A DNA stretch of 64,000 nucleotides from a virus: the IMG/VR virus record IMGVR_UViG_3300049043_000070, positions 96,001 to 160,000 of that record. The stretch is one strand, 5' to 3'. Shown one piece after another: positions 2,419-64,000 of this stretch. The notes under the pieces are model-generated. The model did no database searches. It had not been told where the DNA came from and saw nothing but the letters and a program-made list of their open reading frames with translations. Every line of letters begins with the position of its first letter. Positions within the stretch are counted from its first letter, which is position 1. A program made the translations under genes and the position numbers.

Positions 2419-2419
2419 A

Positions 2420-3827: not shown

Positions 3828-3863
3828 TATAAATAACTCAACACACCATTCAACGTGATAACT

Positions 3864-4061: not shown

Positions 4062-4068
4062 TCCCAAG

Positions 4069-4102: not shown

Positions 4103-4110
4103 CGTGTCTA

Positions 4111-4911
4111 ATGGCATCTCCAAATAGTAGATCCACTCTCATCACATATTGTAAAAGGCAGCTTGGTGAACCTGTCTTACAAATCAATATTGATGACGAG
4201 CAGGTAAATAACGTTATTGACGATACCATACAGTTCTTCCAAGAGAACTGCTATAACGGCATGGAGCGTTGCTATTTAAGACACGAAATAACTGCTGCTG
4301 ATAAGTCAAGATTTGAAAGCGAAGTTACAACAACAAATGGAACCACAAATTGGGAAGAGGCAGCAAATTATATTCCAATTCCAGATCATATTGTAGGTGT
4401 TAGTAAAGTATTTGGAATAGTAGGAAATTCTATTCGTAGTAATCTATTTGGTATTGAATATCAAATTTTCCTCAATGATCTCTATGCTTTTGGATCTCTT
4501 GATATTCTAAACTATTTCATGACAAAGCAATATCTAGAAACTCTAGATATGATCATAAACAATGGATCATTCCAGCAGTTTAGATACACGATGCGTCGTG
4601 ATAGATTATATCTTGATGTTGACAAAGACTTCTTACAAGAAGGTCAGTGGCTATTGATTGAGGCGCATAGACTTCTCAATCCACTAGAAGCAACTGAAAT
4701 GTATAATGATATATTTGTGAAGCGTTATGCCACTGCTCAGATGAAGAGGCAGTGGGGACAAAATCTAATCAAATATAACAATGTCCAACTGCCAGGTGGT
4801 TTAACACTAAATGGCAGACAAATTTATGAAGATGCTATCGCTGAGATTGACAGAATTGAAAGCGAAGTATTGAGTAAGTATGCTATCCCACCACTAGACA
4901 TGATCGGATAA
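4111..4911 (+). CDS. gp13: neck protein gp13
   Basis: YCKRQLGEPVLQINIDDEQ, KRQWGQNLIKY, LPGGLTLNG; T4-like synteny. Confidence 0.93.
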   Translation: MASPNSRSTLITYCKRQLGEPVLQINIDDEQVNNVIDDTIQFFQENCYNGMERCYLRHEITAADKSRFESEVTTTNGTTNWEEAANYIPIPDHIVGVSKVFGIVGNSIRSNLFGIEYQIFLNDLYAFGSLDILNYFMTKQYLETLDMIINNGSFQQFRYTMRRDRLYLDVDKDFLQEGQWLLIEAHRLLNPLEATEMYNDIFVKRYATAQMKRQWGQNLIKYNNVQLPGGLTLNGRQIYEDAIAEIDRIESEVLSKYAIPPLDMIG

Positions 4912-4912
4912 A

Positions 4913-5800
4913 ATGCCTACAAGTCCTTATTTTCCTACCTACTACCAAGGTCATCCCGGCGAACAAAATCTCGCACAGGATCTTGCTGACGAACAGATCA
5001 AACTGTTTGGAACAGATATCTATTATCTGCCAAGAACTATTCTGAAAGATAACACACTTGATGATGTTATCTATTCCAAATATCTAGATGAATTTCAAGT
5101 AGAAATGCTACTTCAGAATGTAGAAGGTTTTGGTACAGCACCTTCTGAATTTATCAGTAAGTTTGGTATTCGCATTACTGATGAAGTAACGTTTATTGTT
5201 TCAAGTAGAAGATGGGATCAAGCAGAAGCACAATATGCTCCAACACTTACTGTTCCAGGAAGACCAAATGAGGGTGATTTATTATATTTTCCACTGACAA
5301 AAGATTTGTATGAAATCAAATTTGTAGAAAGAGAAACTCCATTCTATCAGTTTGGTAAAATTCAATTCCTTTTCATAACTGCTGAAATCTATGAAGTTGG
5401 TAATGATCTTATTGATACTGGTGTCGCTGATATTGATGATATTGAAACCCTATTCAGTTCTGCGATATCATTAGTTATGAATACTGGTGGATCTGGAGCA
5501 TTCACTGTTGATGAATTGGTTACGGGAGCAACTAGCAATACTGAGGTTACAGTAAAGTCTTGGAATTCAACATCCAGAATTCTACAAGTTATCAACAGAA
5601 CAGGAACTTTTGTTACCGGAGAAACAATTACTGGCGATGATAGTAATGCTGTGTGGGTTCTTGGGTCCTTTGATACTCTAAATAATACCAACAGCGAATA
5701 TGATCAAAATAGAGAATTTGAAGATGAAGCTGATAATATTATAGATTGGAGTGAAAGAAATCCATTCGGTGAATATGGAAATTATACAGGTAGCATCTGA
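4913..5800 (+). CDS. gp14: neck protein gp14
   Basis: EQIKLFGTDIYYLPR, PNEGDLLYFP, NPFGE. Confidence 0.92.
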   Translation: MPTSPYFPTYYQGHPGEQNLAQDLADEQIKLFGTDIYYLPRTILKDNTLDDVIYSKYLDEFQVEMLLQNVEGFGTAPSEFISKFGIRITDEVTFIVSSRRWDQAEAQYAPTLTVPGRPNEGDLLYFPLTKDLYEIKFVERETPFYQFGKIQFLFITAEIYEVGNDLIDTGVADIDDIETLFSSAISLVMNTGGSGAFTVDELVTGATSNTEVTVKSWNSTSRILQVINRTGTFVTGETITGDDSNAVWVLGSFDTLNNTNSEYDQNREFEDEADNIIDWSERNPFGEYGNYTGSI

Positions 5801-36211: not shown

Positions 36212-36455
36212 GTGGATTATCGCTCAGGTAGAGGAGGTTGAGGGTGCCACTTCAATAGGTGACCCCGACTGTGTTTTACGAGAACCATATGTGGTAGAAT
36301 GTGATGGTGAGATCTATTCATGGCCTCGTCATTCAAATGATCGTGAGGTGATTGTCAGATCTTCTGATATTACCACACTTGTCAATCCAAGTACCAAGTT
36401 GCTTGCTACTTATCTACTCAAAGTTGATCCTCCAAAACCGCCAAAGTCTGAATGA
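36174..36455 (+). CDS. conserved hypothetical protein
   Basis: 93-aa ORF directly before gp43. Confidence 0.7.
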   Translation: MEITANLLKLANEWIIAQVEEVEGATSIGDPDCVLREPYVVECDGEIYSWPRHSNDREVIVRSSDITTLVNPSTKLLATYLLKVDPPKPPKSE

Positions 36456-38952
36456 AGTTTTATACTAATGTTGAACAAGCTGGCAACCGATTGCTGGTAC
36501 GTGGTTATGAATGTGGTAAAAACACAGAAGCGAGATATAGTGTTAGGGTTCCATTTAATCCTACACTATATCTCCCTTCAAAAAATTATTCTGAGTGGAG
36601 AACCCTTGAAGGAAATTGTGTAGAACCTCATAAGTTTGGATCTATTTCTGAAGCACGAGATTTTGTAAAAAAGTATGATCAAGTAGAAGATTTTCAAATC
36701 TACGGCAATACCAGATTTTTGTATCAATACATTGCTGAAGAACATCCGGAGGATGAGATTAAGTTTGATAGCAGTAAGATCCGTGTCTTCACAATTGATA
36801 TTGAGACCTCAGCAGAAAATGGATTTCCTGATGTAGCATCTGCCGATCAGGAAATTCTTGCGATCTCTATTAAAGATAGCTTTACTGGTCGCATTACTGT
36901 TTGCGGTGCAGACCATTTGATAACAAAGATCCAATGGTTGATTACATGCATTTCCGTCAAGAAGAAAGCATGTTAACCGCTTTTCTGGATTATTGGCAAG
37001 AGAACTATCCAGATGTGATTACTGGATGGAATGTACAGTTGTTTGACATGCCGTACATTCACAATCGGATTGATCGCATTTTGGGTGAAAAATATACAAA
37101 ACTTTTATCACCGTGGAAACTTGTATCTCGCCGTGAGATCTTTATTAAGGGTCGCAAGCAGTTTGCCGTAGATACTCTTGGTATTTCTACTCTTGATTAT
37201 CTTGAATTGTATAAGAAATTTACTTATACCAACCAAGAGAGTTATCGTCTTGATTACATTTGTAATGTAGAATTAGGTGCCAAAAAACTGGATCACAGTG
37301 AGTTTGATACCTTCAAAGAATTCTATGAGAATGACTGGCAGAAGTTTATTGAATATAACATTCATGACGTTCGCCTTGTTGATCAATTGGACGACAAGAT
37401 GAAACTTCTTGATTTGGCATTTACTATGGCATATGACGCTAAAGTAAATTACGAGGATGTGTTCTCCCAGGTTCGTATGTGGGACAATTACATTTTTGTA
37501 GAATTGTTGAAGCGCAAGATTGCCATTCCTCCCAAAAAAGAAGCTGTTAAAGATGCTAAGTATGCCGGAGCATATGTGAAGGAACCTATTCCTGGTTTCT
37601 ATGACTGGGTTGTGTCTTTTGACCTCAATAGTTTGTATCCGCATTTGATCATGCAGTATAACATTTCCCCTGAGACTCTTATTAGACGAAAGACACTCTG
37701 AGGCAAATGTTGATGATCTTCTAAACAAAAAAGTAGAAATCAATGGTGATCATTGTGTTGCTGCTAACGGCGCACAGTATCGTAAAGACATTCATGGTTT
37801 TCTACCTCAGATGATGCAGAAGATGTATGACGGTCGTGTGATCTACAAAAAGAAAATGCTTGCTGCCAAGCAGCAGTATGAGAAAACACCCACAGTGGAA
37901 CTCATGAAGGATATTGCCAGATACAATAATATTCAAATGGCAAAAAAGATTTCTTTGAACTCTGCCTATGGCGCTATTGGTAACGAGCACTTCCGCTATT
38001 ACAAACTGGCAAATGCTGAAGCGATCACTCTATCTGGTCAGCTCTCTATCCGCTGGATTGAGAATAAAATGAACCAGTATCTAAATAAGGTGTTGAAGAC
38101 TGGTGACGTTGATTATGTGATTGCTTCTGATACTGATAGCATCTATCTGTGTCTTGATGCTCTTGTTCAAAATGTCTTTAGTGACACATTACCAGAGAAA
38201 GCAAAGATCGTTTCTTTCTTGGACAAGGCATGTCAAACACAGATTGAACCTTTCATTGAAAAGTCCTATCAAGAACTGGCTGATTATATGAATGCGTATG
38301 ATCAGAAGATGCAAGATGAAGCGGGAGAACATTGCCGACCGTGGCATCTGGACAGCAAAGAAGCGTTATATTTTGAACGTATGGGATAGTGAAGGTGTGC
38401 GATATACTGATCCAAAGATGAAAATCATGGGTCTTGAAACTGCTAGGTCTTCAACTCCAGCATACTTCAGAGACAAATTGTATGAAGCCTTCAAGATTAT
38501 TATCGGCAAAACAAATGATGAACTCATCAATTTCATCAATGATGTCCGTGATGAAACCAGAAAGCGACCCTATTCCGAAGTTGCCTTCCCCAGAGGCGTC
38601 AACAATTTGGCAAAGTATCGCCACCCCACGGAGATTTACAGGAAAGGAACCCCCATTCATGTAAGAGGTGCTCTGCTCTATAACCATTATGTTAAAAAGC
38701 ATAAGATTGAGCATAAGCATCAACTTATTCAAGAGGGTGAAAAGATTAAGTTTATGTATCTTAAAACTCCAAACATAATTCATGAAAACTGTATCGCTTC
38801 TTGGTGAATTGCCACCAGAATTTGGATTGGAAAAGTATGTAGACTACCAGACACAATTTGAAAAATCTTTTCTTGAACCGCTCAAAAATGTGTTAGAATG
38901 TATTGGATGGAAACATGAAAAGGTGATCACGATTGGGAGCTTCTTTGAATGA
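36452..38952 (+). CDS. gp43: family B DNA polymerase gp43 (several frameshifts)
   Basis: IDIE exonuclease, SFDLNSLYP, KISLNSAYG, SDTDS. Confidence 0.96.
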
Positions 38953-39119: not shown

Positions 39120-40120
39120 ATTTAGTTATTAAAGACAGTGGCAATGAATATGCTGCTTTGGTTAGCGATGGTGTTGCCGCTGGCGACATTACTACTTTTG
39201 TTGATACAGGTTCTTTCATTTTTAACGCACTGGTTAGTGGATCTATCTTTGGTGGTATCCCATCTAACAAAGTTACAGCTCTTGCTGGGGAAACAAGTAC
39301 AGGTAAAACATTTTTTGCTTTGTCTCTTGTTCGTAGTTTTCTTAATGCTAACCCTGATGGTGGCGTCATTTATTTTGAAAGTGAGTCTGCTATTTCCCGC
39401 GATATGATTGAAAGTCGTGGAATTGATAGTAAGCGTATGGTAATCTTTCCTGTTGGAACAATTGAAGAGTTTAGAACACAAGCAGTTCGTATTCTTGATA
39501 AGTACCTTAAAGAACCAAAAGATGAACGCCAACCATTAATGTTTGTCTTGGATAGTCTTGGTATGCTTTCTACCAGCAAAGAAATGGAAGACGTTGCTAA
39601 TGACAAACAAGTTCGTGATATGACTAAATCGCAACTGATTAAGGGTGCGTTTCGTGTTCTAACTCTCAAGCTTGGTCAAGCGAACGTGCCTATGATCGTA
39701 ACTAATCATACATATGATGTGATTGGATCGTATGTTCCACAAAAAGAAATGGGCGGTGGTACTGGATTAAAGTACGCAGCATCAACGATTATATACTTGT
39801 CTAAATCAAAAGAGAAGGATGGCACTGAGGTGGTTGGTAATATCATCAAGTGTGAAGCAAAAAAATCACGATTAACCAAGGAGGGTAGTAAAATTGCCAC
39901 AAGACTTTTCTTTGACGAGCGTGGACTGGATCGCTATTACGGATTACTGGAATTGGGTGAGGAGCACGGAGTATTCACTCGTAAAGGAAATCGTATCGTT
40001 GTTGGCGAATCCTCTGTTTATCCTTCTGTTATTCTTGCCGATCCCGAGAAGTATTTCACGGAAGAAATAATGGCTCAACTTGAAGAAGCAGCAAGGAAAG
40101 AATTTGGTTATGGCAACTGA
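39107..40120 (+). CDS. uvsX: RecA-like recombinase UvsX
   Basis: [25 protein letters not shown]. Confidence 0.94.
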
Positions 40121-41496
40121 ACGTATTGAAGAAACTATCTTGCGTAATCTTCTCTTCAATGAGGAGTATTACCGCAAGGTAGTTCCATTTCTAAAAGCAG
40201 ATTATTTCAACGAATATCATGAACGCATCATCTTTGAAGAGATTGCTGACTTTGCCAGTAAGTACGACAAAGTACCTACTCAAGAAGTTCTCTCAATCAA
40301 CCTCCAATCTAGAAACGATCTTACAGAAGACACATTCCAAAGTTCCTTATCTACACTCAAGTCCCTCGGAAACGATTGGATTGACTATGGCTGGTCCTTG
40401 ATGCCACAGAAAAGTGGTGTCAAGACAGAGCAATCTATCTCGCTCTCATGCTATCCATCAAGGTCGCAGATGGAGGTGATAAAAAACTATCAAAAGATGC
40501 GATCCCAGGTATCCTTCAGGAGGCCTGGCAGTATCGTTTGATGAACACATAGGACACGATTATATTGAACAAGCAGAAGAACGATATGATTTTTACCACC
40601 GTGTTGAAGAAAAAATCCCGTTTGATCTTGAAAAGTTTAATTTCATTACCAAAGGTGGTCTCCCCAATAAAACTCTCAATATCGCTCTTGCTGGCACGGG
40701 CGTCGGAAAAAGTCTATTCATGTGTCATATGGCTAGTGCCGCTCTCACACAGGGACGCAACGTACTCTATATTACATGTGAAATGGCAGAGGAGAAAATT
40801 GCTGAGCGAATTGACGCAAACTTATTGAATGTCAATGTCAAAGACATTGCTGAATTGCCTGAAGTTCTCTTTACTTCTAAAGTTCAAGAGATTGCTAGAA
40901 AGACTAGAGGAAAACTTATCATCAAAGAATATCCAACAGCATCAGCACACGTTGGACATTTCAAGGCATTACTCTCAGATCTTTCCTTGAAAAAAAGTTT
41001 TAAACCTGATATAATCTTTATTGATTATTTAAACATCTGTGCTAGTGCGAGGTACAAAGGTGCGATTGTCAATTCTTACACGTATGTCAAAGCGATTGCT
41101 GAAGAGCTGCGTGGTCTTGCTGTGGAGAACAATGTACCAATTGTCTCTGCTACTCAAACTACTCGCAGTGGTTATGGTAATAGTGATCCTGACCTTACCG
41201 ATACTTCTGAGTCTTTTGGTCTTCCTGCCACTGCTGACTTTATGTTTGCCCTTATTTCTACTGAGGAACTTGAACAACAGGGTCGCATCATGGTCAAACA
41301 ACTTAAAAACCGATACAATGACCCAACTGCCTCTAGAAAATTCATGGTGGGAATTGACAGAGCGAAGATGAAGCTGTATGATGTAGCAGATGATGCTTCT
41401 GCTATCAGTATAGATGCTGAAGACCCTGGCGAAGAGTTCGCCCAATTTGCCCAAACACAAAACCGTTTATCTAAATTTGCTGAGTGGAATGTATGA
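40110..41496 (+). CDS. gp41: replicative helicase gp41 (frameshifted)
   Basis: [39 protein letters not shown]. Confidence 0.95.
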
Positions 41497-43504: not shown

Positions 43505-44709
43505 ATGGCAAACGTAACTCAACTCAAACACTTAGAACACCTTGAAGATGAGATGCTCAACTATGGAGTTGAGGGATGTGAATCTGCTGTATCTTTCTTG
43601 AAAGAATTGAGGAAGATGATGGGTCATCAAGAAAGCACTGGATTTATGCAAACGAAATGGGATGGTGCTCCTTCGGTTGTTTGTGGTGTGGATCCTTTAT
43701 CTGGAGTATTTTTTGTTGGCACGAAGTCTGTGTTTAACAAAACCGAACCTAAATATGTGCTACTGAAAAATCAGTTGATGACTATTACGATGGTGATCTA
43801 GCAGAAAAACTTAAATATTCTCTTCGTTACTTTAGTAAACTTGGTATCAAAGGAGTTATTCAGGGTGATTTATTATTTACTGATTCCACCAGACACATTG
43901 AAACTGTAAATAAAGAACAACTCTACACCTTTAGACCAAACACTATTACTTATGGCATTCCTACTGACCACGATATTGGTAAAGAAGTTGGCAGAGCAAA
44001 AATTGGAGTAGTATTTCATACTCATTATACTGGTGATTGTCTTGCTGAAATGCAAGCACGAGCTGGTGCTCCCATCAATACTTTCAATAAAGTTCCTGAA
44101 GTAGCAGTGATTGCTAATGATACCCCCATGGATCGTGTTGGATTTTCAAGAGCAGAGATGGCACGATTTGATAGGTATATTGCTAAAATCAATAGGATGT
44201 CTCAACTATGTGGAGACTTTCTGGATGATCTTGTCAGTAACTTTGGTACTACTGGTGATGCTAAGTTCCATATCTCTTCTTATCTAAAGCAGTTTTTTAA
44301 TAGTGAGATCAAGAATGCTCGCAGCATTTCTAATATTGATGAGACCATAAACGAACTGGTTAATTTCTATCATGATAAAATGAGTAAAGAACTTGCCAAG
44401 ATAAAGACACCAGCAAATCTTGTGACAAAAAGAAACCTTGTTTATAAAAGTGAGAACTACTTGTTGGATAATGTTTATAAGTTCAAGACCATGATTGCTC
44501 TGTACAAAGAACTACAGGCAGTCAAGCAAATGGTTATAGATAAACTAGACCATCTTGAAGAGTTCAGAACTTTTGTTCAGACCGAGAAAGGATACAAGGT
44601 CACAACTCCTGAAGGTTATGTTCTTCATAAAGACGGTAGCATGATCAAGTTTGTCAATCGTCTGGAGTTTGCTTACAACAACTTCACACTACAAAAGCAA
44701 TGGCGATAG
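43505..44709 (+). CDS. conserved hypothetical protein (frameshifted)
   Basis: HLEHLED, KWDGAP, FVGTKS, PEGYV, KFVNRLEF. Confidence 0.8.
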
Positions 44710-49409: not shown

Positions 49410-50437
49410 GTTCTTTTATTGATGTAAAGTATATTCAACTCGTATCCTCTCGTCTTATTCTGTTTACACGCAAAAAAGCAGACCTGTATAATTTCAGGTG
49501 TCCATACTGTGGAGATAGTCAGAAGCGCAGAAATAAGGCAAGAGGATATTTGTTTAAGATCAAGAATGATTTTGTGTTTAAGTGTCACAATTGTGGAGCA
49601 GGCAGAACCCTCTCCAACTTCCTAAAGGACCAGGACACATTCCTTCATGATCAATACGTGATGGAAAAGTTCAAAGATGGTAAGACTGGCAAAGGAACTA
49701 CAATTCCAAACCCAGTCTTTAATTTTCAGGAACCAAAGTTTTTCACTAAAATTGAAAATTCAGTTGATCTTGAAAAAATTTCAGACCTAAATATTTCTCA
49801 CCCGGCGAGAGAGTATCTTGAAAATAGAGGTATCAAAGATTTAGATTATTTTTATTATTGTCCAAAGTTCAAAGAATGGACAAACAAACAAAAGAAAACT
49901 TTTGATACCTTGCGCCAAGATAGTCCCAGAATTATCATTCCTTTCCGAGACAAAGATGGTAACCTTTTTGGATACCAAGGCAGATCGCTAGCTCCTAAAG
50001 CAAAACTCAGATACATCACGATCATGCTGGATGAAGGACAATCAAAAATTTTCGGACAGGATAGAGTAAATTACGATGAGAGATTATTTGTAACAGAAGG
50101 ACCCTTTGATAGTATGTTCATAAAGAACGCATTAGCAATGGCAGGTTCCGATGTTTCACTGTCTCAATTCTCAAAAGATACTGTATTTGTATTTGATAAT
50201 GAACCACGCAATAAAGAGATTGTAGCAAAATATGAAAAGGTAATCAAAGCAGGATACTCAGTCGTGATTTATCCTAGCGGTATAGTAGAAAAAGATTTGA
50301 ACGATATGTGCTTATCTGGACGTGATGTTCAAAGTATAGTAGAATGTAATATCTACAGCGGATTAGAAGCAACTCTTAAATTAAACAATTGGAAAAGGTA
50401 TGACAAACGGATACAACATTCAAGTTCGCAAGCGTAA
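49406..50437 (+). CDS. gp61: DNA primase gp61
   Basis: RCPYCGDS...CHNC zinc ribbon, YQGR, TEGPFDS, FDNE, KDLND. Confidence 0.94.
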   Translation: MSSFIDVKYIQLVSSRLILFTRKKADLYNFRCPYCGDSQKRRNKARGYLFKIKNDFVFKCHNCGAGRTLSNFLKDQDTFLHDQYVMEKFKDGKTGKGTTIPNPVFNFQEPKFFTKIENSVDLEKISDLNISHPAREYLENRGIKDLDYFYYCPKFKEWTNKQKKTFDTLRQDSPRIIIPFRDKDGNLFGYQGRSLAPKAKLRYITIMLDEGQSKIFGQDRVNYDERLFVTEGPFDSMFIKNALAMAGSDVSLSQFSKDTVFVFDNEPRNKEIVAKYEKVIKAGYSVVIYPSGIVEKDLNDMCLSGRDVQSIVECNIYSGLEATLKLNNWKRYDKRIQHSSSQA

Positions 50438-52724
50438 CGGGTCTGTAGAACCCATCAATCTTGATAAGATCCATAAGATGGTAGAAGAGGCTTGCGATGG
50501 GTTAGGGAGCGGCGTGAGTGCCTCTCAGGTGGAAATGAATTCCGGTCTTCAGTTCTTTGATGGAATTGAAACCAAGAACATTCAGGAAATTCTTGTTCGT
50601 TCTGCTAGCGATTTGATTAGTCTTGATAGTCCAAACTATCAATATGTTGCTGCTAGATTACTTTTGTTTGGACTTCGCAAACAAGTATTTGGTTCTGCCT
50701 GGTTGAATGGTTATCCTCATGTATTAGATCATACCTTTAAATGTGCGACAAAAGGAATTTATGACAAAGAAATTCTTGGTAAATATACCAAAGAAGAATG
50801 GGATAAGATCAACAGTTTTATTGATCATGAGCGAGATTTTCTCTTTACATATGCTGGTCTTCGCCAGGTAGTTGATAAGTATCTTGTTCAAGATCGCAGT
50901 AGTGGAGAAGTCTATGAAACTCCACAATACATGTATATTATGATTGCTGCGACTTTGTTCCAGAACTATCGCAAAGACAGGTTAGAGTATGTCAAAAAAT
51001 ACTACGACGCAATCTCAAAGCACAAAATCAACATCCCTACCCCCATTATGGCGGGCGTTAGGACACCACTCAGACAATTTGCTAGCTGTGTTTCTTGTTG
51101 ATGTTGATGACACCCTCGATAGCATCTTTAGCAGTGACATGGCTGATTGGCTGACTATGTTAGTCAAAGGGCAGGAATTGGCATCAACGCAGGTCGTATC
51201 CGTGGCATCAACAGCAAAATCAGAGGGGAGAAGTTACTCATACAGGTGTTATCCCATTCCTCAAAAAGTTTGAAGCAACTGTTAGATGCTGTACACAAAA
51301 CGGGATTCGCGGTGGAAGTGCTACTGTCCACTTTCCAATCTGGCACAAAGAAATAGAAGATATTATTGTATTAAAAAATAATAAAGGAACCGAAGATAAT
51401 CGTGTTCGTAAGTTAGATTACTCAATTCAAATCAGCAAACTGTTCTATGAGCGTTTCATTCAAGACCAAGAAATCTCACTCTTCTCCCCACATGATGTTC
51501 CTGGTTTGTATGATGCTTTTGGCACTGATAGATTTGACGAGTTATATGTGGGTTATGAACGAGATACATCTATTTCAAGAAAGACTATTGGAGCTCAAGA
51601 ACTCATTTTGGACCTCTGAAAGGAGAGAGCAGAGACCGGTCGTATTTACATCATGAATATTGACCACTGCAACTCTCATTCTTCATTCAAAGATAAGGTC
51701 AACATGTCCAATCTTTGTCAAGAGATTACACTACCAACAGATCCAATCAATCATATTGATGATAAGGAGGGAGAAATTGCTCTCTGTATTTTGTCTGCGA
51801 TTAATGTTGGTAAGTTAAAAACTCTTGATGATCTTGAAGAACTTTGTGATCTTACTGTTCGTGGTCTTGAAGAACTAATTGATTATCAGAAATATCCTGT
51901 TGCAGCTGCCAGAAAATCTACTCTTGCTCGCCGTTCTCTTGGCATTGGTTACATTGGACTAGCACATTATCTGGCAAAAAATGGAGTAAAATATGAAGAT
52001 CCAACAGCATGGCAACTCGTCCATGACCTTACTGAAGCCTTTCCAGTACTATCTCCTCAAATCTTCCAACGCAATTGCCAAGGAGAAAGGAGCATGTGAA
52101 TACTTCCCAAGAACCAAATATGCTGACGGTATCCTGCCAATTGACACTTACAAGCGCGACATTGATGAGTTCTGTGATTCAACATTGAAGTATGATTGGG
52201 AAGTACTACGTGCCGAGATACAAGCATCTGGACTACGACATTCAACATTGTCCGCACAAATGCCATCGGAAAGCAGTTCCGTTGTGTCAAATGCCACAAA
52301 TGGAATTGAACCACCACGAGGATACATGTCCACTAAGAAAAGTAAAAAAGGGCCTCTTAAGCAGATTGTTCCGCAGTATGGGTCTCTTAAAAATAACTAT
52401 ACTCTTCTTTGGGACATGAAAGATAATGATGGTTACATTAAAATTGTTGCCGCCATGCAGAAATTCTTTGACCAAGCAATCTCTGGAAACTGGAGTTATA
52501 ATCCAGAAAATTATGATGACAACGAGGTTCCAGTATCTGTGATGGCAGGCGACCTTCTGAAGACCTACAAATATGGTTGGAAAACTTCATATTATCAAAA
52601 CACATATGACATCAAGAGTGATGAGCTTCTATTAACAGAAGACGAAAAGAAAAACTCAATCAAAGATCTACTAGACGACATTTTCAAAACGGAGGAAGAA
52701 GATTGTGACAGTTGTAAAATTTAG
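50400..52724 (+). CDS. nrdA: class Ia ribonucleotide reductase alpha subunit (frameshifted)
   Basis: ATP cone VRKRNG, PTPIMAG, SNLCQEI, QMPSESSS. Confidence 0.96.
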
Positions 52725-57050: not shown

Positions 57051-57058
57051 TCTTACAT

Positions 57059-57131
57059 GCCTCAGTAACTCAGAGGACAGAGTATCCGCCTTCTAAGCGG
57101 TTAACCGTTGGTTCGAATCCAACCTGAGGCG
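57059..57131 (+). tRNA. trnR: tRNA-Arg(TCT)
   Basis: GCCTCAG/CTGAGGC acceptor, CTTCTAA loop, GTTCGAATC T-loop. Confidence 0.9.
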
Positions 57132-57179
57132 TTGAGTTTTTTAAACTCTTATAAATAAACACATTAAAGGTCGAACATC

Positions 57180-57281
57180 ATGTCTAACTTCAGCAAGCAA
57201 ATTGAGATTTTTATGGAAAGTGATTGCCGTTATTGGCATATTGCTCAGTCCCCCGTGCTTGCTCATAAGTGGAAACGATGA
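57180..57281 (+). CDS. 33-aa peptide with upstream late promoter core
   Basis: ATAAATA at 57151, AAGG, MSNFSKQIEIFMESDCRYWHIAQSPVLAHKWKR. Confidence 0.4.
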   Translation: MSNFSKQIEIFMESDCRYWHIAQSPVLAHKWKR

Positions 57282-57311
57282 CCGACATCTGACACATAAG
57301 CAAGATTTATC

Positions 57312-57351
57312 AGGGGGGCAGTTGACAAAACCGCCCCCCTTATTTTATTGT
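57312..57351 (+). promoter_or_regulatory. GC hairpin enclosing TTGACA; likely terminator/promoter for the tRNA array
   Basis: AGGGGGGC...GCCCCCCT around TTGACA 57322; TATTGT at 57346. Confidence 0.5.
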
Positions 57352-57398
57352 AAATTCATCGGTGGGTGATCCACCAGCACCTTGACAATTTAATCTTT

Positions 57399-57471
57399 GG
57401 GTCTGTAACTCAGTTGGTAGAGTAGCGGGCTTTTAACCTGTAAGTCGTCGGTTCAAGCCCGACCAGACCCA
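57399..57471 (+). tRNA. trnK: tRNA-Lys(TTT)
   Basis: GGGTCTG/CAGACCC, CTTTTAA loop. Confidence 0.92.
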
Positions 57472-57475
57472 TTGT

Positions 57476-57557
57476 GGGAGGATTTCCGAGTGGTTAAAGG
57501 AATCTGACTGTAAATCAGACGGCTCTGCCTTCACAGGTTCAAATCCTGTTCCTCCCA
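57476..57557 (+). tRNA. trnY: tRNA-Tyr(GTA)
   Basis: TCTGA-CTGTAAA-TCAGA, long variable arm. Confidence 0.92.
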
Positions 57558-57561
57558 CCTT

Positions 57562-57633
57562 GGCCCTATAGTGAAGTGGTTATCACGCATCTCTGTCCAA
57601 GATGTATCACGAGTTCAAATCTCGTTAGGGTCG
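57562..57633 (+). tRNA. trnD: tRNA-Asp(GTC)
   Basis: CATCT-CTGTCCA-AGATG. Confidence 0.9.
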
Positions 57634-57636
57634 CCT

Positions 57637-57708
57637 GGTCTCATCGTCTAGTGGTTAGGACAACACTCTTTCACAGTGTAGACACGGGTTCAAGTCCCGT
57701 TGAGACTA
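57637..57708 (+). tRNA. trnE: tRNA-Glu(TTC)
   Basis: ACACT-CTTTCAC-AGTGT. Confidence 0.9.
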
Positions 57709-57710
57709 TT

Positions 57711-57785
57711 GGGAACATAGGCTCCAATTGGTAGAGCACATGGTTGAAGACCTTGGTGTTGTTGGTTCAAATCCAACTGTTCCCG
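57711..57785 (+). tRNA. trnF: tRNA-Phe(GAA)
   Basis: GGGAACA/TGTTCCC, TTGAAGA loop; D-arm irregular, possibly read error. Confidence 0.82.
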
Positions 57786-57788
57786 CCT

Positions 57789-57862
57789 GGAAACATAGCT
57801 TAGTTTGGTAAAGCATTCGACTGATAATCGAAAGACCACTGGTTCGAGTCCAGTTGTTTCCA
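57789..57862 (+). tRNA. trnI: tRNA-Ile(GAT)
   Basis: TTCGA-CTGATAA-TCGAA. Confidence 0.92.
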
Positions 57863-57865
57863 CTT

Positions 57866-57948
57866 GGAAGATTGGCAGAGCGGTTAATGCAGCGGTTTGC
57901 TAAACCGTGAGGGTAACACCTCCGTTGGTTCGAATCCAACATCTTCCG
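57866..57948 (+). tRNA. trnS: tRNA-Ser(GCT)
   Basis: GCGGT-TTGCTAA-ACCGT, long variable arm. Confidence 0.92.
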
Positions 57949-57950
57949 TT

Positions 57951-58022
57951 GGCAGTGTAGTTCAGTGGTAGAACAAGAGATTCATACCCTCTATGTCGGT
58001 AGTTCAATTCTACCCACTGCCT
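57951..58022 (+). tRNA. tRNA with CAT anticodon (elongator Met or Ile2; not initiator)
   Basis: GGCAGTG/CACTGCC, TTCATAC loop; lacks initiator C1:A72 mismatch and GGG/CCC. Confidence 0.8.
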
Positions 58023-58023
58023 T

Positions 58024-58095
58024 GTGTCGTTAGCCTAGTGGTTAAGGCAGTGGTTTGTGGAACCACCCAGATGGGTTCAATTCCCATACGTCACC
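58024..58095 (+). tRNA. trnH: tRNA-His(GTG)
   Basis: GTGGT-TTGTGGA-ACCAC; acceptor has one T:T mismatch. Confidence 0.82.
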
Positions 58096-58096
58096 C

Positions 58097-58167
58097 GTTT
58101 CAGTCGCCAAGTGGTAAGGCGGAAGTCTGCAACTTCCATGCGTTGGTTCGATTCCAACCTGAAACTC
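58097..58167 (+). tRNA. trnC: tRNA-Cys(GCA), anticodon loop apparently short of two A
   Basis: GTCGCCAAGTGGTAAGGC D-arm; GAAGT-CTGCA(AA)-ACTTC; 5' end uncertain. Confidence 0.65.
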
Positions 58168-58170
58168 TAA

Positions 58171-58244
58171 TGAGAAATCGTCTAATGGTAGGACACCTCC
58201 CTTTGAAGGAGTTTATCTAGGTTCGAGTCCTAGTTTCTCAGCCA
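58171..58244 (+). tRNA. trnQ: tRNA-Gln(TTG), CCA encoded
   Basis: TGAGAAA/TTTCTCA, CTTTGAA loop. Confidence 0.9.
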
Positions 58245-58316
58245 GTTGGGTTGGTGTAATTGGTAACATCTTGGTCTCCAAAACCAAAGTTCAGAGTTCA
58301 AGTCTCTGGCCCTTCG
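58245..58316 (+). tRNA. trnW: tRNA-Trp(CCA)
   Basis: TTGGT-CTCCAAA-ACCAA; acceptor has two T:T mismatches. Confidence 0.82.
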
Positions 58317-58319
58317 CCT

Positions 58320-58394
58320 GTCCTCTTCAGCTCAGTGGAATAGAGCAATCGGCTACGAACCGATGTGTCGTAGGTTCAAATCCTACAGAGGACG
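58320..58394 (+). tRNA. trnR: tRNA-Arg(ACG)
   Basis: ATCGG-CTACGAA-CCGAT. Confidence 0.9.
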
Positions 58395-58410
58395 CTTTTC
58401 AAAAAGGAGC

Positions 58411-58439
58411 TTGACAAGACAATCTAAATACCTTAGAAT
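58411..58439 (+). promoter_or_regulatory. sigma70-type promoter with nested late core
   Basis: TTGACA-N17-TAGAAT; CTAAATA in the spacer. Confidence 0.65.
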
Positions 58440-58453
58440 TACTCAGTAATTAT

Positions 58454-58540
58454 GCTCCAGTGGTGGAACGGTAGACACAGCGGACTTAGAATCCGCCGCC
58501 CTGAAAAAGCGTGGAAGTTCAAATCTTCTCTGGAGCACCA
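58454..58540 (+). tRNA. trnL: tRNA-Leu(TAG), CCA encoded
   Basis: GCGGA-CTTAGAA-TCCGC, long variable arm. Confidence 0.92.
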
Positions 58541-58612
58541 GGGCGATTAACTCAGTGGTAGAGTGGCCTCCTTACAAGTGGTAAGTCACTGGTTCGAATC
58601 CAGTATCGCCCA
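58541..58612 (+). tRNA. trnV: tRNA-Val(TAC)
   Basis: GGGCGAT/ATCGCCC, CTTACAA loop. Confidence 0.9.
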
Positions 58613-58628
58613 TTTTTCATCATAAATT

Positions 58629-58790
58629 ATGAAAAAGAAAACTTTTAATAAACTTATCCAGGGACCCTTGCGGTTTCATCATCAAGATATTCACGAAGAA
58701 CTAGAAGACATTAAGGGAATGTTGAAAAATGTTATCAGTCAGATGCAAGAATTGCGGGAAGGAGTTAGAGGCTCACCCAACGAAAACTAG
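58629..58790 (+). CDS. small hypothetical protein
   Basis: MKKKTFNKLIQGPLRFHHQDIHEEL. Confidence 0.5.
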   Translation: MKKKTFNKLIQGPLRFHHQDIHEELEDIKGMLKNVISQMQELREGVRGSPNEN

Positions 58791-58980
58791 ATGTTGTGGA
58801 TGTCCAAACATGACATCTGTTAGAGGAGACCAAATATCCGCAGTTGATCTATCCAAAGTTGTATTAATCAATTCTGAAAAGAATATTAAGAAACAACCAT
58901 TGTTATCAAATGCTGACCTAAAATACCAGGAAGAACGACGCAAACGCAAAGTTCGCAAACTAGACTTTGAGGTACGCTAA
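58729..58980 (+). CDS. zinc-ribbon hypothetical protein
   Basis: RCKNCG...CCGCPN; RRKRKVRKLDFEVR. Confidence 0.75.
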   Translation: MLSVRCKNCGKELEAHPTKTRCCGCPNMTSVRGDQISAVDLSKVVLINSEKNIKKQPLLSNADLKYQEERRKRKVRKLDFEVR

Positions 58981-59158
58981 TGATCAATCTCCATCAACGT
59001 TATAATCATTATCTTCACACCGACAAAAAACATGATCGGGTGAATGAAAATATTATAGGTTATGGGTGGACTGATGATGGTTCAGAATTGACTGGGTATT
59101 ATGTCTTGACAGAACATCACAAGTTGTTCTATAATCTTCAAGAACAATTTCAATATAT
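58980..59158 (+). CDS. small hypothetical protein (open frame runs on into tRNA-Ser)
   Basis: MINLHQRYNHYL...GYGWTDDG; 3' end uncertain. Confidence 0.45.
59106..59135 (+). promoter_or_regulatory. sigma70-type promoter upstream of tRNA-Ser and the iron cassette
   Basis: TTGACA-N18-TATAAT. Confidence 0.65.
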
Positions 59159-59242
59159 GGAAGGGTGGCCGAGTGGTTTAAGGCAACAGTCTTGAAAACT
59201 GTCGTGTGACGAGCACCGTGGGTTCGAATCCCACCCCTTCCG
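59159..59242 (+). tRNA. trnS: tRNA-Ser(TGA)
   Basis: GGAAGGG/CCCTTCC, ACAGT-CTTGAAA-ACTGT. Confidence 0.92.
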
Positions 59243-59286
59243 TTCCCTATTATTAGGGATGACATGTCGTTCAAATAATAAAAACT

Positions 59287-60168
59287 ATGTTAATTCGTTC
59301 ATTTATTGCTGCTGGTGTTGCTGTTGCTTCTATTGCTGCTCCTGCCATGGCACAAGTCACCAGTGTTTCACAACTGAAAGACGTTCAACCTACTGAGTGG
59401 TCTTATCAGGCAATCTCAAATCTGGTTTCACGTTATGGTTGCGTTGCTGGTTATCCTAATGGCACTTTCCAGACCGGTCGCACCGCCACCCGTGCTGAAC
59501 TTGCTGCTCTCACCAATGCTTGCCTTGATAACATCACTACCTTCTACAGTGAAGCAGATGCTCGTCTTGCCTCCGCTCTTCGTGCTGAGTTCTCCCGTGA
59601 GATTGCTGCTACGAACAAGCGTGTGACTGCTCTGGAAGTTGCTGCTGCTCAAAAGGCACAAGGCGTTGGTAACTATGTTGGTGTTGGCGTTCTTCTCAAT
59701 CAGCAAGGCACTGCTGGTAATGGGTTCAGTGCTCAGCGTACCATCTCTGGTGCTACCGTTCAGGCACGTTATGCTGTGAAGAACTTCACCAACCTGAATG
59801 CTGTTTCGGTTCGTCCTTATGCTAGCTTCGTAGGTACTCCTGCTGGTCAACTGGGTTCTGGTGGTGGCGCTCTAGTGTCTTATGATTGGAGCATTTCTCG
59901 TGCCAAGTCTGGTGTGAGCCGTGCTAACGTCTACACTGGCGTTGGTTATCAGATCCCCTTCGTGAACAACACTGCTGCTAACTATCAGTCTGCTGTTGGT
60001 AATCGTGGTCAAGTTGTTCTTGCCATTGGCGTTGAAGGTCGTATCACCAACTCTCTGGTTGGTTTTGCTGATCTGAAGTTCCCTACGACCAATGCCGCTA
60101 ACAGCTACGGTGCTACTAACGGGACTTATTCTCCTGTGTTCACCACTGGACTTGGTTTCAAGTTCTGA
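59287..60168 (+). CDS. SLH-domain outer-membrane beta-barrel protein (cyanobacterial porin-like N-terminus)
   Basis: Signal peptide ending AMA; QVTSVSQLKDVQPTEWSYQAISNLVSRYGCVAGYPNGTF, TRAELAA, LRAEFSRE; amphipathic strands; terminal GLGFKF. Confidence 0.85.
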   Translation: MLIRSFIAAGVAVASIAAPAMAQVTSVSQLKDVQPTEWSYQAISNLVSRYGCVAGYPNGTFQTGRTATRAELAALTNACLDNITTFYSEADARLASALRAEFSREIAATNKRVTALEVAAAQKAQGVGNYVGVGVLLNQQGTAGNGFSAQRTISGATVQARYAVKNFTNLNAVSVRPYASFVGTPAGQLGSGGGALVSYDWSISRAKSGVSRANVYTGVGYQIPFVNNTAANYQSAVGNRGQVVLAIGVEGRITNSLVGFADLKFPTTNAANSYGATNGTYSPVFTTGLGFKF

Positions 60169-60174
60169 TATAAT

Positions 60175-60188
60175 GGGGAGAAATCCCC
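60175..60188 (+). other. GNRA-capped hairpin between porin and permease
   Basis: GGGGA-GAAA-TCCCC with no U-tract. Confidence 0.5.
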
Positions 60189-60195
60189 TAATATT

Positions 60196-61504
60196 ATGAT
60201 CTGGATTGATTCTATTTTTAACACTGGTCTTCTTATTGTGATGACCAGTGTTATTTCTGTTTTTATAGGAACTTTCACTGCTCTGTTTGCATGGAAAAGT
60301 AATCAACGATGGGCATACTTTCTCCCTCTGACGTAACACTTGCAGTTCCTCCTTGGTTGTTTACTTTTTACTTTAGTGAAACTTTTGGTATTGTAGATCC
60401 TTGGATTGGCGCTGCTATTAGCTTGGGAGTTTGTTGTAGTGTATATCCCCATAGTATTATCTCAAGCAGTTTAGCAAACCGAGCATATAAAGATTGGGAA
60501 ATGCTTCAGGTTATCAAAGGAAAGAACCTGAAGAGCTTAGCAATGGCAGTATATCCATCACTCAAAATTAGTTTACTTCCGAGCATCGCTATCGTTGCTG
60601 CTGAATGCATTACTGATTTCGGTGTATCAAACTTCTATGGATTGAATACCGTCACCATGCTCACGTATAATTTGTGGACGAGCACATGGAACTTTGGTTC
60701 TTTGGTGTGGGGTATATTCATTCTGTTGGCGATGGGTATATTGATTAGTCGTTTGGAAACGAATACGATTGTGAGTTTGACAAGTTCAAACACCACACGA
60801 AAATCAAATGTTTATGGTATCATTGCTGTGCTGCCCACATTATCATTGTTATTATTTGGCATGGTAAAATCTATTGAATGGATTGTAATGCAGGGTAGTA
60901 TTGATGTTGGTGATTTACTTTTTGAAGTTGGTAACACAATGCTCTTGGTTGGTATTGTAGTAGCAACTTGTATACTTGTTCTGATTTCTTATCTTGGTGG
61001 ATTTGCTAAATCATTTACAAGGAGATTAGGATTGGCTTCGTATGCCATTCCTGGCACTGTAGTTGGTTCAGCATTTGTCTACCTATTGGGCGGCAAACTA
61101 CCACTGATTATTCTTTTGACTTCAGCAATTACTTTCCGATACTTTGGTTTGATAATTCATTCGGTCTCAGTATCTGAAAAGGAAGTAAGAAATACTTTGA
61201 AGTAATTGATTTTTATACTCGTTCTAGATGGAAACAGTTAAATCAAAAGTTTAAACTGATCCTCTCTAGCATCATGATTGGAATGAGTTTGATTATCTTA
61301 GATGTTTTAAGAGAGCTACCAATCTCAATGGTTCTTCAACCTGTAGAGTTTCAAACTCTCGCTATGAGGATGAGTTATATTGCCAAGACAGAAAATCCCA
61401 CTCTTCTTGGATTTCATAGTATAATACTTTTACTGTTGGGAATATTTTTTAGTTTAGTCGTTGTGTGGATTACCTATGATAAAAGTAAAAAATCTCATCA
61501 TTGA
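60196..61504 (+). CDS. futB: Fe(III) ABC transporter permease (FbpB/FutB-like; two frameshifts)
   Basis: Multi-TM; LAVPPW, AECITDFGV, YAIPGTVVG, FRYFGL, DVLRELP...PVEFQTLA. Confidence 0.82.
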
Positions 61505-62433
61505 GAAACCAGATTTACAAATTAAAGACCTTGAAATAGATGAACACACAGTCATCATCGGACCCAGTGGTGCTGGTAAAACAACGTTCCTTCGTTGTGT
61601 TGCTGGTCTTGAGAACTATACTGGGGAGATTTACATTGATGGTGAACTGAAAACCGAAGTCGGATTAAATCGTGGTGTGAGTATGGCATGGCAGGATGGT
61701 AGGTTGTTGCCAAACTCTTCTGTTCGTGCTAATATTGAGTTGGGTGGCGATCCTGATTTAATTGAACACATGTGCAATCTATTCAAGATCGACCATCTTC
61801 TTGATAAGATGCCTCACGAACTTAGTGGGGGTGAAGCACAACGAATAAATATCATACGAGCAATTTGTTCACCCGCAAAGGTGGTCTTGTTGGATGAACC
61901 GATGCAGGGCATTGACCCTATCATTGTTCGTAAAACATTGAAACAGTTGCTCCATGAGCTGAAAGAAATATGATAAGATAGCATTGTTAGTCACTCATGA
62001 ACTTTATCAAGTTTATGGATTGTTTGATCGTGCTATCGTTATTAAACATGGTGAAACGATTGCACACGACGAACTTCGTTCGTTGTATGACAATCCTTTA
62101 TCACCTTGGATGGCTAACTTCTTTGGTGCATATACTGTATTGAATAAAGAAGACCTTAAAAGTTTTGAACACCATTCTAACGAAGATCCATGTATGATCC
62201 GACCAGAATGGTTTAAAATCAAAATGCCTCCTTTTAAGAAACCTTTGGAGTTCAATGCTACTGTCACTGGCGTACATTGGGATGGTCCCAGTACAAAAGT
62301 TTCCTTAGTGCTTGACGGCACAAACAAACCACTCGCTGTGGAGTTATACGCAGATTACGAAATCAAAAAAGGAGACAGAGTTTATGTCAATTTTAAGAAA
62401 AGCAGTCGCCCTACTTGGGTGCTTAACCGTTAG
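61476..62433 (+). CDS. futC: ABC ATP-binding protein (FbpC/FutC/PotA-like, C-terminal TOBE-like region; one frameshift)
   Basis: GPSGAGKTT, LSGGEAQR, LLDEP, VTHE, NFFG, IRPE. Confidence 0.9.
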
Positions 62434-63431
62434 CATCGGAGCAGTTCTACCTGCTGCCGCTGCCCCTAAGAAAACCGTTACCGTGATTACTGACCGTAGC
62501 GATTTTCACCTAAAGCCTATCTTTGAGGCTTTTGAAGAAGCAACAGGTGTTGATGTTAAAGCAGTATTTGTGGATCAAGGATCTCTTCCTGCTCGTCTAG
62601 CATCTGGAGCAGACAAAGCAGATCTATTCATCACTACAGATCTTCCTACGATTGCTACAGCAAAAGAACAAGGATATACTCAACCAATTCTTTCTGGAAA
62701 AATCAGAACTCTTGATAGAGGATTTGTAGATCCACAAAGTCATTATGCTGCTATCAGTTTCCGTGGCAGAACGATTGTTTATAATCCTAAAAAAGTAGAT
62801 GTAAAAACTTTGAGGGGTTATGATGATCTTGCTGATCCAGAATACAAAGGTCGTGTATGCATTCGTCCTTTCACTCATGTTTACAATGTAACTATGCTGA
62901 GTGAAATGATCGTTGATCGTGGTGAAGCATATGCTCGTAACTGGGTGAATGGTGTGAAGAATAATCTTGCTGTGAAACCATCTGGTAATGATCGCAACCA
63001 AGCAAAACTGAGTTGCAAATGGAATTTGTGATCTTGCTTTGATGAACACTTATTACTATGGTCTACTTCTTTCAAATAAAGCTCAAAGACCTATCGCTAA
63101 TGCTACAGAACTCTTCTTCCCCAATCAGAGTGGGAAGGGAACTTATACGCTTTACAGTGGCGTAGCAATGGCAAAAACTGCCAAACACACCAAAGAAGCA
63201 ATCCAATTGGTCGATTACCTGTTGGGTAATGTCGGACAAAATCATATCGCTCAAACTACATTTGAATATCCTGTAAATCCCAACATTAAACTTTCAGTTA
63301 TTGCTGAAGGTTTTGGTGAGGGTCAACCTGGCATCAAAGATGGCAAAGCAAAATTTGCACGTATGAACCCCGCTAGAGTTGCTAAATATCGTGAGACCGC
63401 TGCTAAGATCTTGGCAGAGGCAAGCAAGTGA
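62384..63431 (+). CDS. futA: periplasmic Fe(III)-binding protein (FbpA/FutA/IdiA family; frameshift near 63020)
   Basis: Signal peptide; KPIFEAFEEATGV, ADLFIT, RGRTIVYN, GYDDLADPEYKGRVCIR, HVYN, GNDRNQ, NTYYYG, FEYPV. Confidence 0.9.
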
Positions 63432-63442: not shown

Positions 63443-63476
63443 GGGGGTTGACAAAACCCCCTTTTTAACTTATGAT
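63443..63476 (+). terminator. terminator closing the iron cassette, overlapping a sigma70 promoter for tRNA-Pro
   Basis: GGGGGTT-GACAA-AACCCCC-TTTTT; TTGACA 63448-N17-TATGAT 63471. Confidence 0.75.
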
Positions 63477-63487: not shown

Positions 63488-63559
63488 CGGGGCGTAAGTC
63501 AGCGGTAGACGGCTTGCTTTGGGAGCAAGAAGACACTGGTTCGATCCCAGTCGCCCCGA
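63488..63559 (+). tRNA. trnP: tRNA-Pro(TGG)
   Basis: CGGGGCG/CGCCCCG, CTTGC-TTTGGGA-GCAAG. Confidence 0.9.
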
Positions 63560-63587
63560 TCTTTCCTATATAATTTTTTAGGTGCCG

Positions 63588-63833
63588 ATGTCTTTTACCA
63601 TCTACTCCAAAACAGGTTGTCCTTTCTGTGAGAAATGTATTGCTGTCATGGAACATGAAGGTTTCACACATGTAATTTATCAATTAGATAAAGATTTTAC
63701 CATTGATGAATTCTATGCTGAATTTGGCGAAGGATCCACATTTCCACAAATTACCTTGGATGGCATTCAACTTGGTGGATGTCAAGAAACTGTTAAATAT
63801 TTACAAAAAAACAATGTCTGCTGCAATGTCTGA
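63588..63833 (+). CDS. glutaredoxin
   Basis: YSKTGCPFC, STFPQI, LGGC. Confidence 0.9.
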   Translation: MSFTIYSKTGCPFCEKCIAVMEHEGFTHVIYQLDKDFTIDEFYAEFGEGSTFPQITLDGIQLGGCQETVKYLQKNNVCCNV

Positions 63834-64000
63834 AGAAACTACTGAAATCACTGAACTTGAGCTTGAAAAAAACTTTGATGAAATTATTGAACGTGTAGAA
63901 GCAGGAGAAACATTCATCATTCGTAGAGATGATGGGTCTGCGGTTGCCATGGTTCCGGCATCTTTAGTAGAAGAAGCTGGAGTTGATCTGAAGACACTTT
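63826..64000 (+). CDS. Phd/YefM-like hypothetical protein, truncated by window end
   Basis: ELEKNFDEIIERVEAGETFIIRRDDGSAVAMVP. Confidence 0.5.
   Translation, partial: MSEETTEITELELEKNFDEIIERVEAGETFIIRRDDGSAVAMVPASLVEEAGVDLKTL

Follow-up and report, generated by a model that had tools for sequence, protein, structure and literature searches.

The window analysed here, a 64,000-nucleotide stretch comprising bases 96001-160000 of the 186,293-bp IMG/VR virus record IMGVR_UViG_3300049043_000070, is likely to carry a functional, phage-propagated ATP-binding cassette (ABC) importer for ferric iron. Three genes encode its putative parts, an FbpB-like permease, an FbpC-like ATPase and an FbpA-type solute-binding protein, and a gene for an SLH-domain outer-membrane protein precedes them. 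The replication module of the window is about 78% identical at the nucleotide level to that of Synechococcus phage S-RSM4 and other T4-like cyanomyoviruses. In large ocean areas and many lakes, iron is limiting for the growth of cyanobacteria, and phage replication needs iron enzymes (ribonucleotide reductase, 2-oxoglutarate (2OG)-Fe(II) oxygenases, the photosynthetic chain). The known nutrient genes of cyanophages are single parts that plug into host machinery, the standard example being pstS; a self-sufficient three-subunit importer would be an intervention on another scale. The finding opens to testing the idea that an infecting virus changes how its cell takes up and stores iron, and thereby changes iron cycling.

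In a phmmer search of the PDB, the N-terminal fragment of the binding protein, as recorded in the window, matched 7li0 at 4e-30, followed only by ferric-binding structures (FbpA, FutA). A family profile built from 28 relatives and scored against the PDB matched Bordetella FbpA (1y9u) at 2.9e-102, Mannheimia FbpA (1q35) at 4e-93 and Synechocystis FutA1 at 3e-86, whereas binders of other ligands (PotD, a putative 2-aminoethylphosphonate binder and a thiamine binder) reached only about 1e-11 to 1e-12. In bits, the profile scored 346 against the Bordetella protein versus 293 against FutA1, 232 against FutA2 and 218 against Prochlorococcus FutA. The positions of Bordetella Tyr143, Tyr199 and Tyr200 are invariant in the 28 relatives and occur in both window fragments of the protein, within HVYN and NTYYY, the tyrosine motifs first picked out from the sequence. 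Equally invariant are R38, R127 and R129 (P0005 numbering; residues were counted on printed alignments), the counterparts of Mannheimia FbpA (1q35) residues Arg10, Arg101 and Arg103; the window has these arginines too (motif TDRSD). Arg10 and Arg101 of the Mannheimia protein are said, from the work of Shouldice et al. in 2003, to hold the synergistic anion. In the FbpA class, three tyrosines of the C-domain ligate Fe(III), these being Tyr144, Tyr200 and Tyr201 in Tery_3377 (PMC6254336).

The permease aligns with a structurally characterised ferric importer. Its profile (A2, from 35 relatives) is collinear over positions 16-425 with residues 48-489 of Thermus thermophilus FbpB (9j4r_A, 4e-12), and the stretch DVLRELP...PVEFQTLA, on which the earlier note on this DNA had based an FbpB-type assignment, aligns with the Thermus protein. 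The AlphaFold2 model of the permease (predicted local distance difference test, pLDDT, 84; predicted template modelling score, pTM, 0.82) was matched by Foldseek to the same cryo-electron microscopy chain with a template modelling (TM) score of 0.82 and an E-value of 3.6e-13, and the next match, the single-domain PotABC chain 8y5f_C, came far behind. From the profile and the model, the protein is predicted to be a compact FbpB, a single chain fusing two transmembrane domains, with 435 amino acids as compared with at least 490 in FbpB-type permeases; it would be a divergent form overlooked by current domain models. The ATPase matches PF00005 at 2e-24 and, weakly, TOBE_2/TOBE_3 at its C-terminus. 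It bears all the core motifs ascribed to it from the sequence, namely Walker A (GPSGAGKT), the Q-loop, the signature LSGGE, Walker B with the catalytic Glu (LLDEP) and the H-loop (VTHE), in addition to the TOBE-like tail. The phage genes thus specify the same three components as bacterial FbpABC/FutABC (a permease in which two domains are fused, a periplasmic binding protein, and an ATPase whose C-terminal domain is regulatory), with the tyrosine triad and the site arginines of FbpABC conserved and the FbpB fold predicted for the permease.

The layout of the locus agrees with the earlier description of four co-oriented, packed or overlapping genes lying between tRNA-Ser and tRNA-Pro, with a phage-style terminator and promoter at the end. 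The ends of the cassette genes overlap, as they do in intact relatives, and the G+C content at the locus is 39-45%. The features are listed below in window coordinates.

59106..59135, plus strand: promoter-like TTGACA-18-TATAAT, 12/12 matches to the sigma-70 consensus, upstream of tRNA-Ser and the SLH gene (a consensus match only).
59158..59243, plus strand: tRNA-Ser(UGA), found with ARAGORN, left boundary of the cassette.
59287..60168, plus strand: SLH-anchored predicted outer-membrane protein of 293 amino acids (PF00395, 1.3e-9), S-PM2p168 orthologue.
60147..60188, plus strand: promoter-like TGGACT-16-TATAAT overlapping the stop codon of the SLH gene, then a hairpin GGGGA-GAAA-TCCCC before the permease start (read from the sequence).
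60196..61504, plus strand: FbpB-like fused double-domain permease, 435 codons when corrected for indels, three frames as recorded.
61476..62433, plus strand: FbpC-like ABC ATPase, 318 codons when corrected for indels, two frames as recorded.
62384..63431, plus strand: FbpA-type binding protein with a Sec signal peptide, 348 codons when corrected for indels, two frames as recorded.
63443..63476, plus strand: terminator-like hairpin GGGGG...CCCCC (the hairpin itself at 63443-63461), then TTTTT; its loop holds TTGACA, with TATGAT 17 nucleotides on, as an embedded promoter-like site.
63488..63559, plus strand: tRNA-Pro(UGG), found with ARAGORN, right boundary of the cassette.
63582-63833: nrdC glutaredoxin gene, after tRNA-Pro (PF00462, 7e-11).

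Several points weigh against a functional ferric-iron importer. Iron binding and transport are here predictions from sequence and models. The permease has no Pfam match at E-values up to 1, ABC permease models included, and the curated NCBIfam models give it only weak NikC and PhnU2 matches; because of the profile alignment and the fold match to FbpB, we read the missing Pfam match as divergence and not as another fold. FutA2 supplements its tyrosines with His13 and Tyr14 from an N-terminal loop closing over the iron (PMC6254336), and the N-terminal His-Tyr pair of cyanobacterial FutA was not found in the phage family, in which R-S-D replaces the R-H-Y of FutA1 and of the Campylobacter protein. 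Annotations of ABC transporters as 'iron' systems can be wrong, as the case of AfuABC demonstrates: long annotated as an iron transporter, it actually carries hexose and heptose phosphates (PMC4546632). The peptide pattern of the cellular scan reported below excludes cyanobacterial FutA, and the case for a non-host origin rests mainly on the ranking of the PDB profile scores. Finally, the transporter genes of the window contain four frame-breaking indels, of which three lie outside homopolymers and all four recur in a second record of the same phage, although that record is no independent witness and has many errors of its own.

Since R-S-D stands in place of R-H-Y, the site would be of the three-tyrosine plus anion type known from Bordetella and Mannheimia and not of the host FutA type; it lacks the His-Tyr pair of cyanobacterial FutA and resembles the proteobacterial class. 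Judged by these residues, the binding protein belongs with the FbpA proteins of the three-tyrosine plus synergistic-anion class and not with class IV FutA/IdiA, which uses His plus four Tyr.

The AfuABC precedent also lends itself to a different explanation, in which the transporter imports another ligand (a sugar phosphate, 2-aminoethylphosphonate, thiamine or a polyamine) and the 'ferric' label is an annotation artefact. The best NCBIfam models for the binding protein are indeed those for 2-aminoethylphosphonate, but at 42-60 bits versus cut-offs above 300, and the ATPase sequence is not diagnostic of the substrate class. We regard this explanation as improbable. The AfuABC caveat is answered by the conservation of the metal ligands in the phage binding protein: no family member departs from the tyrosine triad or from the arginines that would anchor the anion, and the match to iron-bound FbpA is about 90 orders of magnitude better than those to the PotD, 2-aminoethylphosphonate and thiamine binders. 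In addition, the ferric importer FbpB is the only strong structural match of the permease, and genes for ferritin and an 'iron uptake porin' neighbour the cassette in sister phages. The proposal of the earlier note that the YN and YY motifs ligate Fe(III) is supported by the conserved tyrosines and by the far worse scores of the non-iron binders, and another ligand is unlikely.

All three transporter genes are broken in the record. Comparison with intact relatives on contigs L003 and L005 located four frame-breaking indels, where three had been counted before:

about 60331: indel of +2, permease.
about 61180: indel of -1 in an A-run, permease.
about 61961: indel of +1, ATPase.
about 63011: indel of +1, binding protein.

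After their removal, the genes have exactly 435, 318 and 348 codons, equal in length to those of the relatives, and no stop codon remains in any cassette gene. Frame switches relative to S-RSM4 proteins are also present elsewhere in the record: four in the g43 DNA polymerase gene (window 36452-38949), two in g41 (40110-41493), two in nrdA (50400-52721) and one in a conserved cyanophage gene (43505-44706). Over 13.4 kb of conserved genes this amounts to about 0.75 switches per kb; the cassette has 1.2 per kb. With a polymerase split into five pieces a phage could not replicate, and the record must therefore carry systematic sequence errors; any reading of this genome at the level of open reading frames requires prior indel correction. 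The ratio of nonsynonymous to synonymous substitution rates (dN/dS) is 0.06-0.12 across the three transporter genes for every pair, the window's own branch included (permease 0.06-0.10; ATPase 0.08-0.09; binding protein 0.06-0.12). Most of the changes that belong to the window branch alone are synonymous, with nonsynonymous to synonymous counts of 15:42, 12:28 and 13:55 in the three genes, and the same holds for the branch of the intact L005.

The Joint Genome Institute contig Ga0496538_0793 (3300045937; L106, L107; 184,645 bp) represents the same phage at 99.74-99.95% nucleotide identity and has the same four cassette indels and g43 breaks as the window. It further contains private single-base indels in the SLH gene, tRNAs and g41 (at window positions 32261, 38041, 40074, 40389, 54482, 55036, 58042-58126, 59823 and 59918), one of which fuses uvsX with g41. 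These private indels mark the contig as error-prone data, and we therefore rejected it as an independent check of the indels, given also its near-identity and the g43 frameshifts in common. The three insertions in the cassette (60331, 61961 and 63011) all follow CT(G) and all create CTGA, a context that could reflect a context-specific base-calling error; no common sequence context was found at the frameshift sites of g43, g41 and nrdA.

Taken at face value, the breaks in all three genes, their presence in Ga0496538_0793 and the position of three of the four outside homopolymers would make the cassette of this phage a decaying pseudogene remnant, with real frameshifts and no transporter made, while relatives keep intact copies. 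We think this very unlikely. Essential genes of the record have frame breaks at a comparable rate, the second record comes from the same phage, sharing the g43 breaks and adding private indels of its own, the window-branch changes are mostly synonymous, and no stops remain after indel removal. Because essential genes are similarly affected, dN/dS is low and correction leaves no stops, the four cassette indels are best explained, on these sequence data, as record-wide sequencing or assembly errors. The frameshifts in the permease and ATPase genes that might have spoken against the importer are thus present, along with one in the binding-protein gene, but the best reading is that they are not real.

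The importer is not confined to this record. Intact cassettes encoding proteins of 435, 318 and 348 amino acids are located on a 187-kb contig with nrdAB, lysozyme, psbA, nrdC and RNase H genes, and intact or near-identical cassettes with phage flanks were found in many assemblies from different samples. Further copies lie on T4-like contigs of 170-309 kb, beside gp32/gp59 and baseplate genes or beside gp13/gp15 and sheath genes; one cassette contig has gyrase, PIF1 and Tad2 genes, and another has an HSP70 gene split by a homing endonuclease. An alignment-based scan of IMG/VR, which depends on exact peptide patterns, added two more viral contigs with the cassette, while a single-protein scan of IMG/VR with exact peptide patterns gave no match. 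No psbA was found in the two IMG/VR cassette fragments, records that are only 6% and 18% complete. Intact copies of the cassette therefore recur on other T4-like phage assemblies. On one such contig, a 272-kb T4-like one (L007, positions 1-5736), five 2OG-Fe(II) oxygenase genes and a tryptophan halogenase gene lie directly upstream of the cassette, so that genes for iron-dependent enzymes are clustered beside the importer.

The same data bear on the suspicion, raised at the outset, of a chimeric join with host DNA. Genes of cellular type in a plastic region beside tRNA genes are what a misassembly of host or bacterial DNA onto a phage might look like. However, phage-flanked copies, intact or near-identical, occur in many assemblies from different samples, the G+C content of the cassette (39-40%) is like that of the remainder of the window, the cellular homologues found reach no more than 33-39% identity, and at the nucleotide level the SLH gene is 81% identical to that of S-PM2. 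Misassembly is effectively refuted, and we attach next to no probability to it.

Maximum-likelihood analysis groups 25 clusters of binding proteins in a single clade (support 100/99, stem 0.5), sister to sequences of Myxococcota and Betaproteobacteria. All six clade members that were traced to contigs, two of them basal, are located on phage-like contigs. A scan of 185,579 species genomes, with a peptide pattern that excludes cyanobacterial FutA, gave best matches of 33-39% identity from Pseudomonadota and Myxococcota, and the Atlas neighbours are bacterial and non-cyanobacterial. Since the nearest cellular relatives found are this distant and proteobacterial, the importer is not a recent copy of the host futABC genes. 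A captured host fut operon is not supported; the genes form a diverged lineage that appears to reside only in large T4-like phages. Among 50,697 GenBank phage records, no relative of the binding protein and permease of this lineage was found; the sole phage match was a 28%-identical binding protein on an unannotated contig from human faeces.

We propose the following route for iron in an infected cell. The binding protein would be exported via the Sec pathway to the periplasm of the cyanobacterium, where it would capture Fe(III) with its three tyrosines and a synergistic anion anchored by the conserved arginines. It would then dock on the compact FbpB-like permease fusing two transmembrane domains, and two copies of the FbpC-like ATPase would drive import. 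Expression is probably early and from host-type promoters, since the genes follow sigma-70-type promoter-like sites. The likely benefit would be iron for phage and host iron enzymes over a long latent period, for example for class I ribonucleotide reductase and photosynthetic electron flow. The sequence data show the gene identities, the fold, the conserved ligand residues, purifying selection and recurrence in phage contexts; Fe(III) as the substrate, the timing of expression and the benefit to the phage are our inference.

The gene directly upstream of the importer encodes a 293-amino acid protein with a signal peptide, an SLH domain, a coiled coil and the C-terminal end ...GLGFKF. It is 75% identical in amino acids to S-PM2p168 ('putative S-layer protein') and 76% to S-CREM1 gp199 ('iron uptake porin'), to which it is orthologous and with which it shares its length class. 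In both S-PM2 and S-CREM1, the SLH protein occurs without an ABC importer, while in the window and in L005 its gene lies directly upstream of one. On NF033921 the protein scores 97.8 bits, just short of the cut-off (100), and its match is confined to positions 1-107 of the 485 in the profile; a domain search gave no OprB match. The signal peptide, SLH domain and coiled coil are held in common with the Som/SLH-OprB porins (Synechocystis Slr1908 and relatives), but in place of the OprB barrel of about 370 residues the window protein has about 165 residues with eight predicted strands. Its AlphaFold2 model, from an 11-sequence alignment, comprises the SLH domain, one long helix and eight strands over residues 130-292; the pLDDT of the strands is mostly 76-93 in 10-residue blocks, with dips in the connecting loops, and that of the whole model is only 66. 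Foldseek returned OmpA, OprG, OmpW and Ail/OmpX barrels at 2e-5 to 1e-3, with no sequence-family match.

The model thus predicts a wall-tethered, small eight-stranded OmpA/OmpW-like barrel that is not porin-sized, in a protein of the S-PM2p168 type, the fold of which had not been examined previously. The predicted barrel gives no evidence of an iron-passing pore, and the link of the 293-amino acid protein to iron is positional only. What remains of the SLH beta-barrel outer-membrane protein originally proposed is the signal peptide, the SLH domain and a predicted barrel, but one of eight strands, in a protein of known type that falls below the NF033921 cut-off. Likewise, of the claimed envelope-spanning iron system, the three-gene importer is supported and the outer-membrane pore of the window is not; sister phages with a full Som/OprB porin fit that description better.

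In those sister phages, the position of the short SLH gene is taken by a larger protein. An SLH outer-membrane gene lies immediately upstream of the transporter in all nine window-clade contigs that reach that far, in the short form in the window and L005 and as a 493-497-amino acid SLH-OprB porin in seven contigs. The porin of L003 matches the 'iron uptake porin' model NF033921 over its full length (294 bits versus a cut-off of 100), together with PF04966, and shares with the 293-amino acid protein 53% identity over 100 amino acids, covering the SLH domain and coiled coil only. A preprint links porins of the SLH-OprB type to the acquisition of iron by Synechocystis (bioRxiv 10.1101/2021.01.14.426630). 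Three contigs (L099 4026-4463, L100 5251-5688 and L101 4012-4449) have a gene for ferritin/Dps (PF00210, about 1e-22) downstream of the porin and importer genes; the genome of the window itself gave no ferritin gene. ABC genes are absent from the freshwater isolate S-SRM01, which does carry the same porin (72% identical) and, downstream of it, the same Dps (76%; L103 6905-7339). The chances seem to us about even that in some freshwater and estuarine cyanophages porin, importer and Dps/ferritin constitute a three-tier iron module (entry, import, storage), and that large T4-like phages keep an ancient and complete Fe(III) importer lineage of their own. Such a module, if real, would give a virus direct control of the infected cell's iron economy.

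The SLH protein and the ABC genes might instead serve envelope remodelling or superinfection exclusion, for example by displacing host Som porin receptors or stabilising the outer membrane. For S-PM2p168, abundant and early transcription has been reported (PMC2984593); the protein is expressed very early and has been proposed to protect against infection or grazing (PMC2984593). A tether-like eight-stranded barrel, as predicted for the short protein, and its occurrence in S-PM2 and S-CREM1 without a transporter accord with such a role. Yet this could explain the SLH gene and not a complete importer with a conserved metal site under purifying selection, and it leaves aside the constant position of an SLH outer-membrane gene upstream of the transporter in the nine contigs. 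As an account of the cassette we think it rather unlikely, although for the SLH gene itself an envelope or exclusion role is compatible with a ferric-iron importer encoded by the three genes downstream.

Among known systems, a close parallel is offered by the pstS and phoA genes of cyanophages, likewise host-type uptake parts that are sporadic among cyanomyoviruses and located in plastic parts of the genome (PMC3037559). The pstS gene supplies only a binding protein, which depends on the host for permease and ATPase, whereas here all three subunits are phage-encoded, which would make the importer self-sufficient; moreover, it concerns iron and not phosphate, and its genes are no close copies of host genes. 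Relative to cellular FbpABC/FutABC, the importer differs in being carried by lytic-type T4-like phages, in the separate clade of its binding proteins, 33-39% identical to the nearest cellular ones found, and in its short permease, which escapes Pfam. The transporter type is therefore familiar, and what appears to be new, on sequence evidence, is the phage carrier, the apparently phage-specific lineage and the compact divergent permease. The searchable full-text literature, which does not cover subscription journals, contains no description of a phage FbpABC/FutABC cassette, and this, with the GenBank result, bears out the statement of the earlier note that no such case had been described. The genome papers of S-SRM01 and S-CREM1 contain no discussion of the porin, Dps or iron.

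A further S-CREM1 gene, gp203, annotated as 'iron-binding protein', was considered as a relative and rejected, its only Pfam match being the DruA domain of Druantia (PF14236, 6.7e-12). It is located between clamp-loader genes (L102 7829-8887), and the 'iron-binding' annotation looks wrong or unexplained.

Some of the other cassette-bearing contigs have unusual neighbouring genes. In L105 (1117-4093), the HSP70/DnaK-like gene is apparently split by a SegE-type GIY-YIG homing endonuclease gene. In L104 (11839-15826), a Tad2-like gene (anti-Thoeris family) and EAL and HDOD genes (cyclic-di-GMP signalling) are found near the transporter.

In the window itself, 17 tRNA genes are densely arrayed at 57058-59243, many of them 0-3 nucleotides apart; the last is the tRNA-Ser(UGA) that borders the cassette, while tRNA-Pro stands apart. 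Beyond the latter, a small overlapping open reading frame follows nrdC (window 63582-63999), an arrangement that parallels the pair of nrdC and a PhD/YefM-domain gene in S-PM2 (p162/p163).

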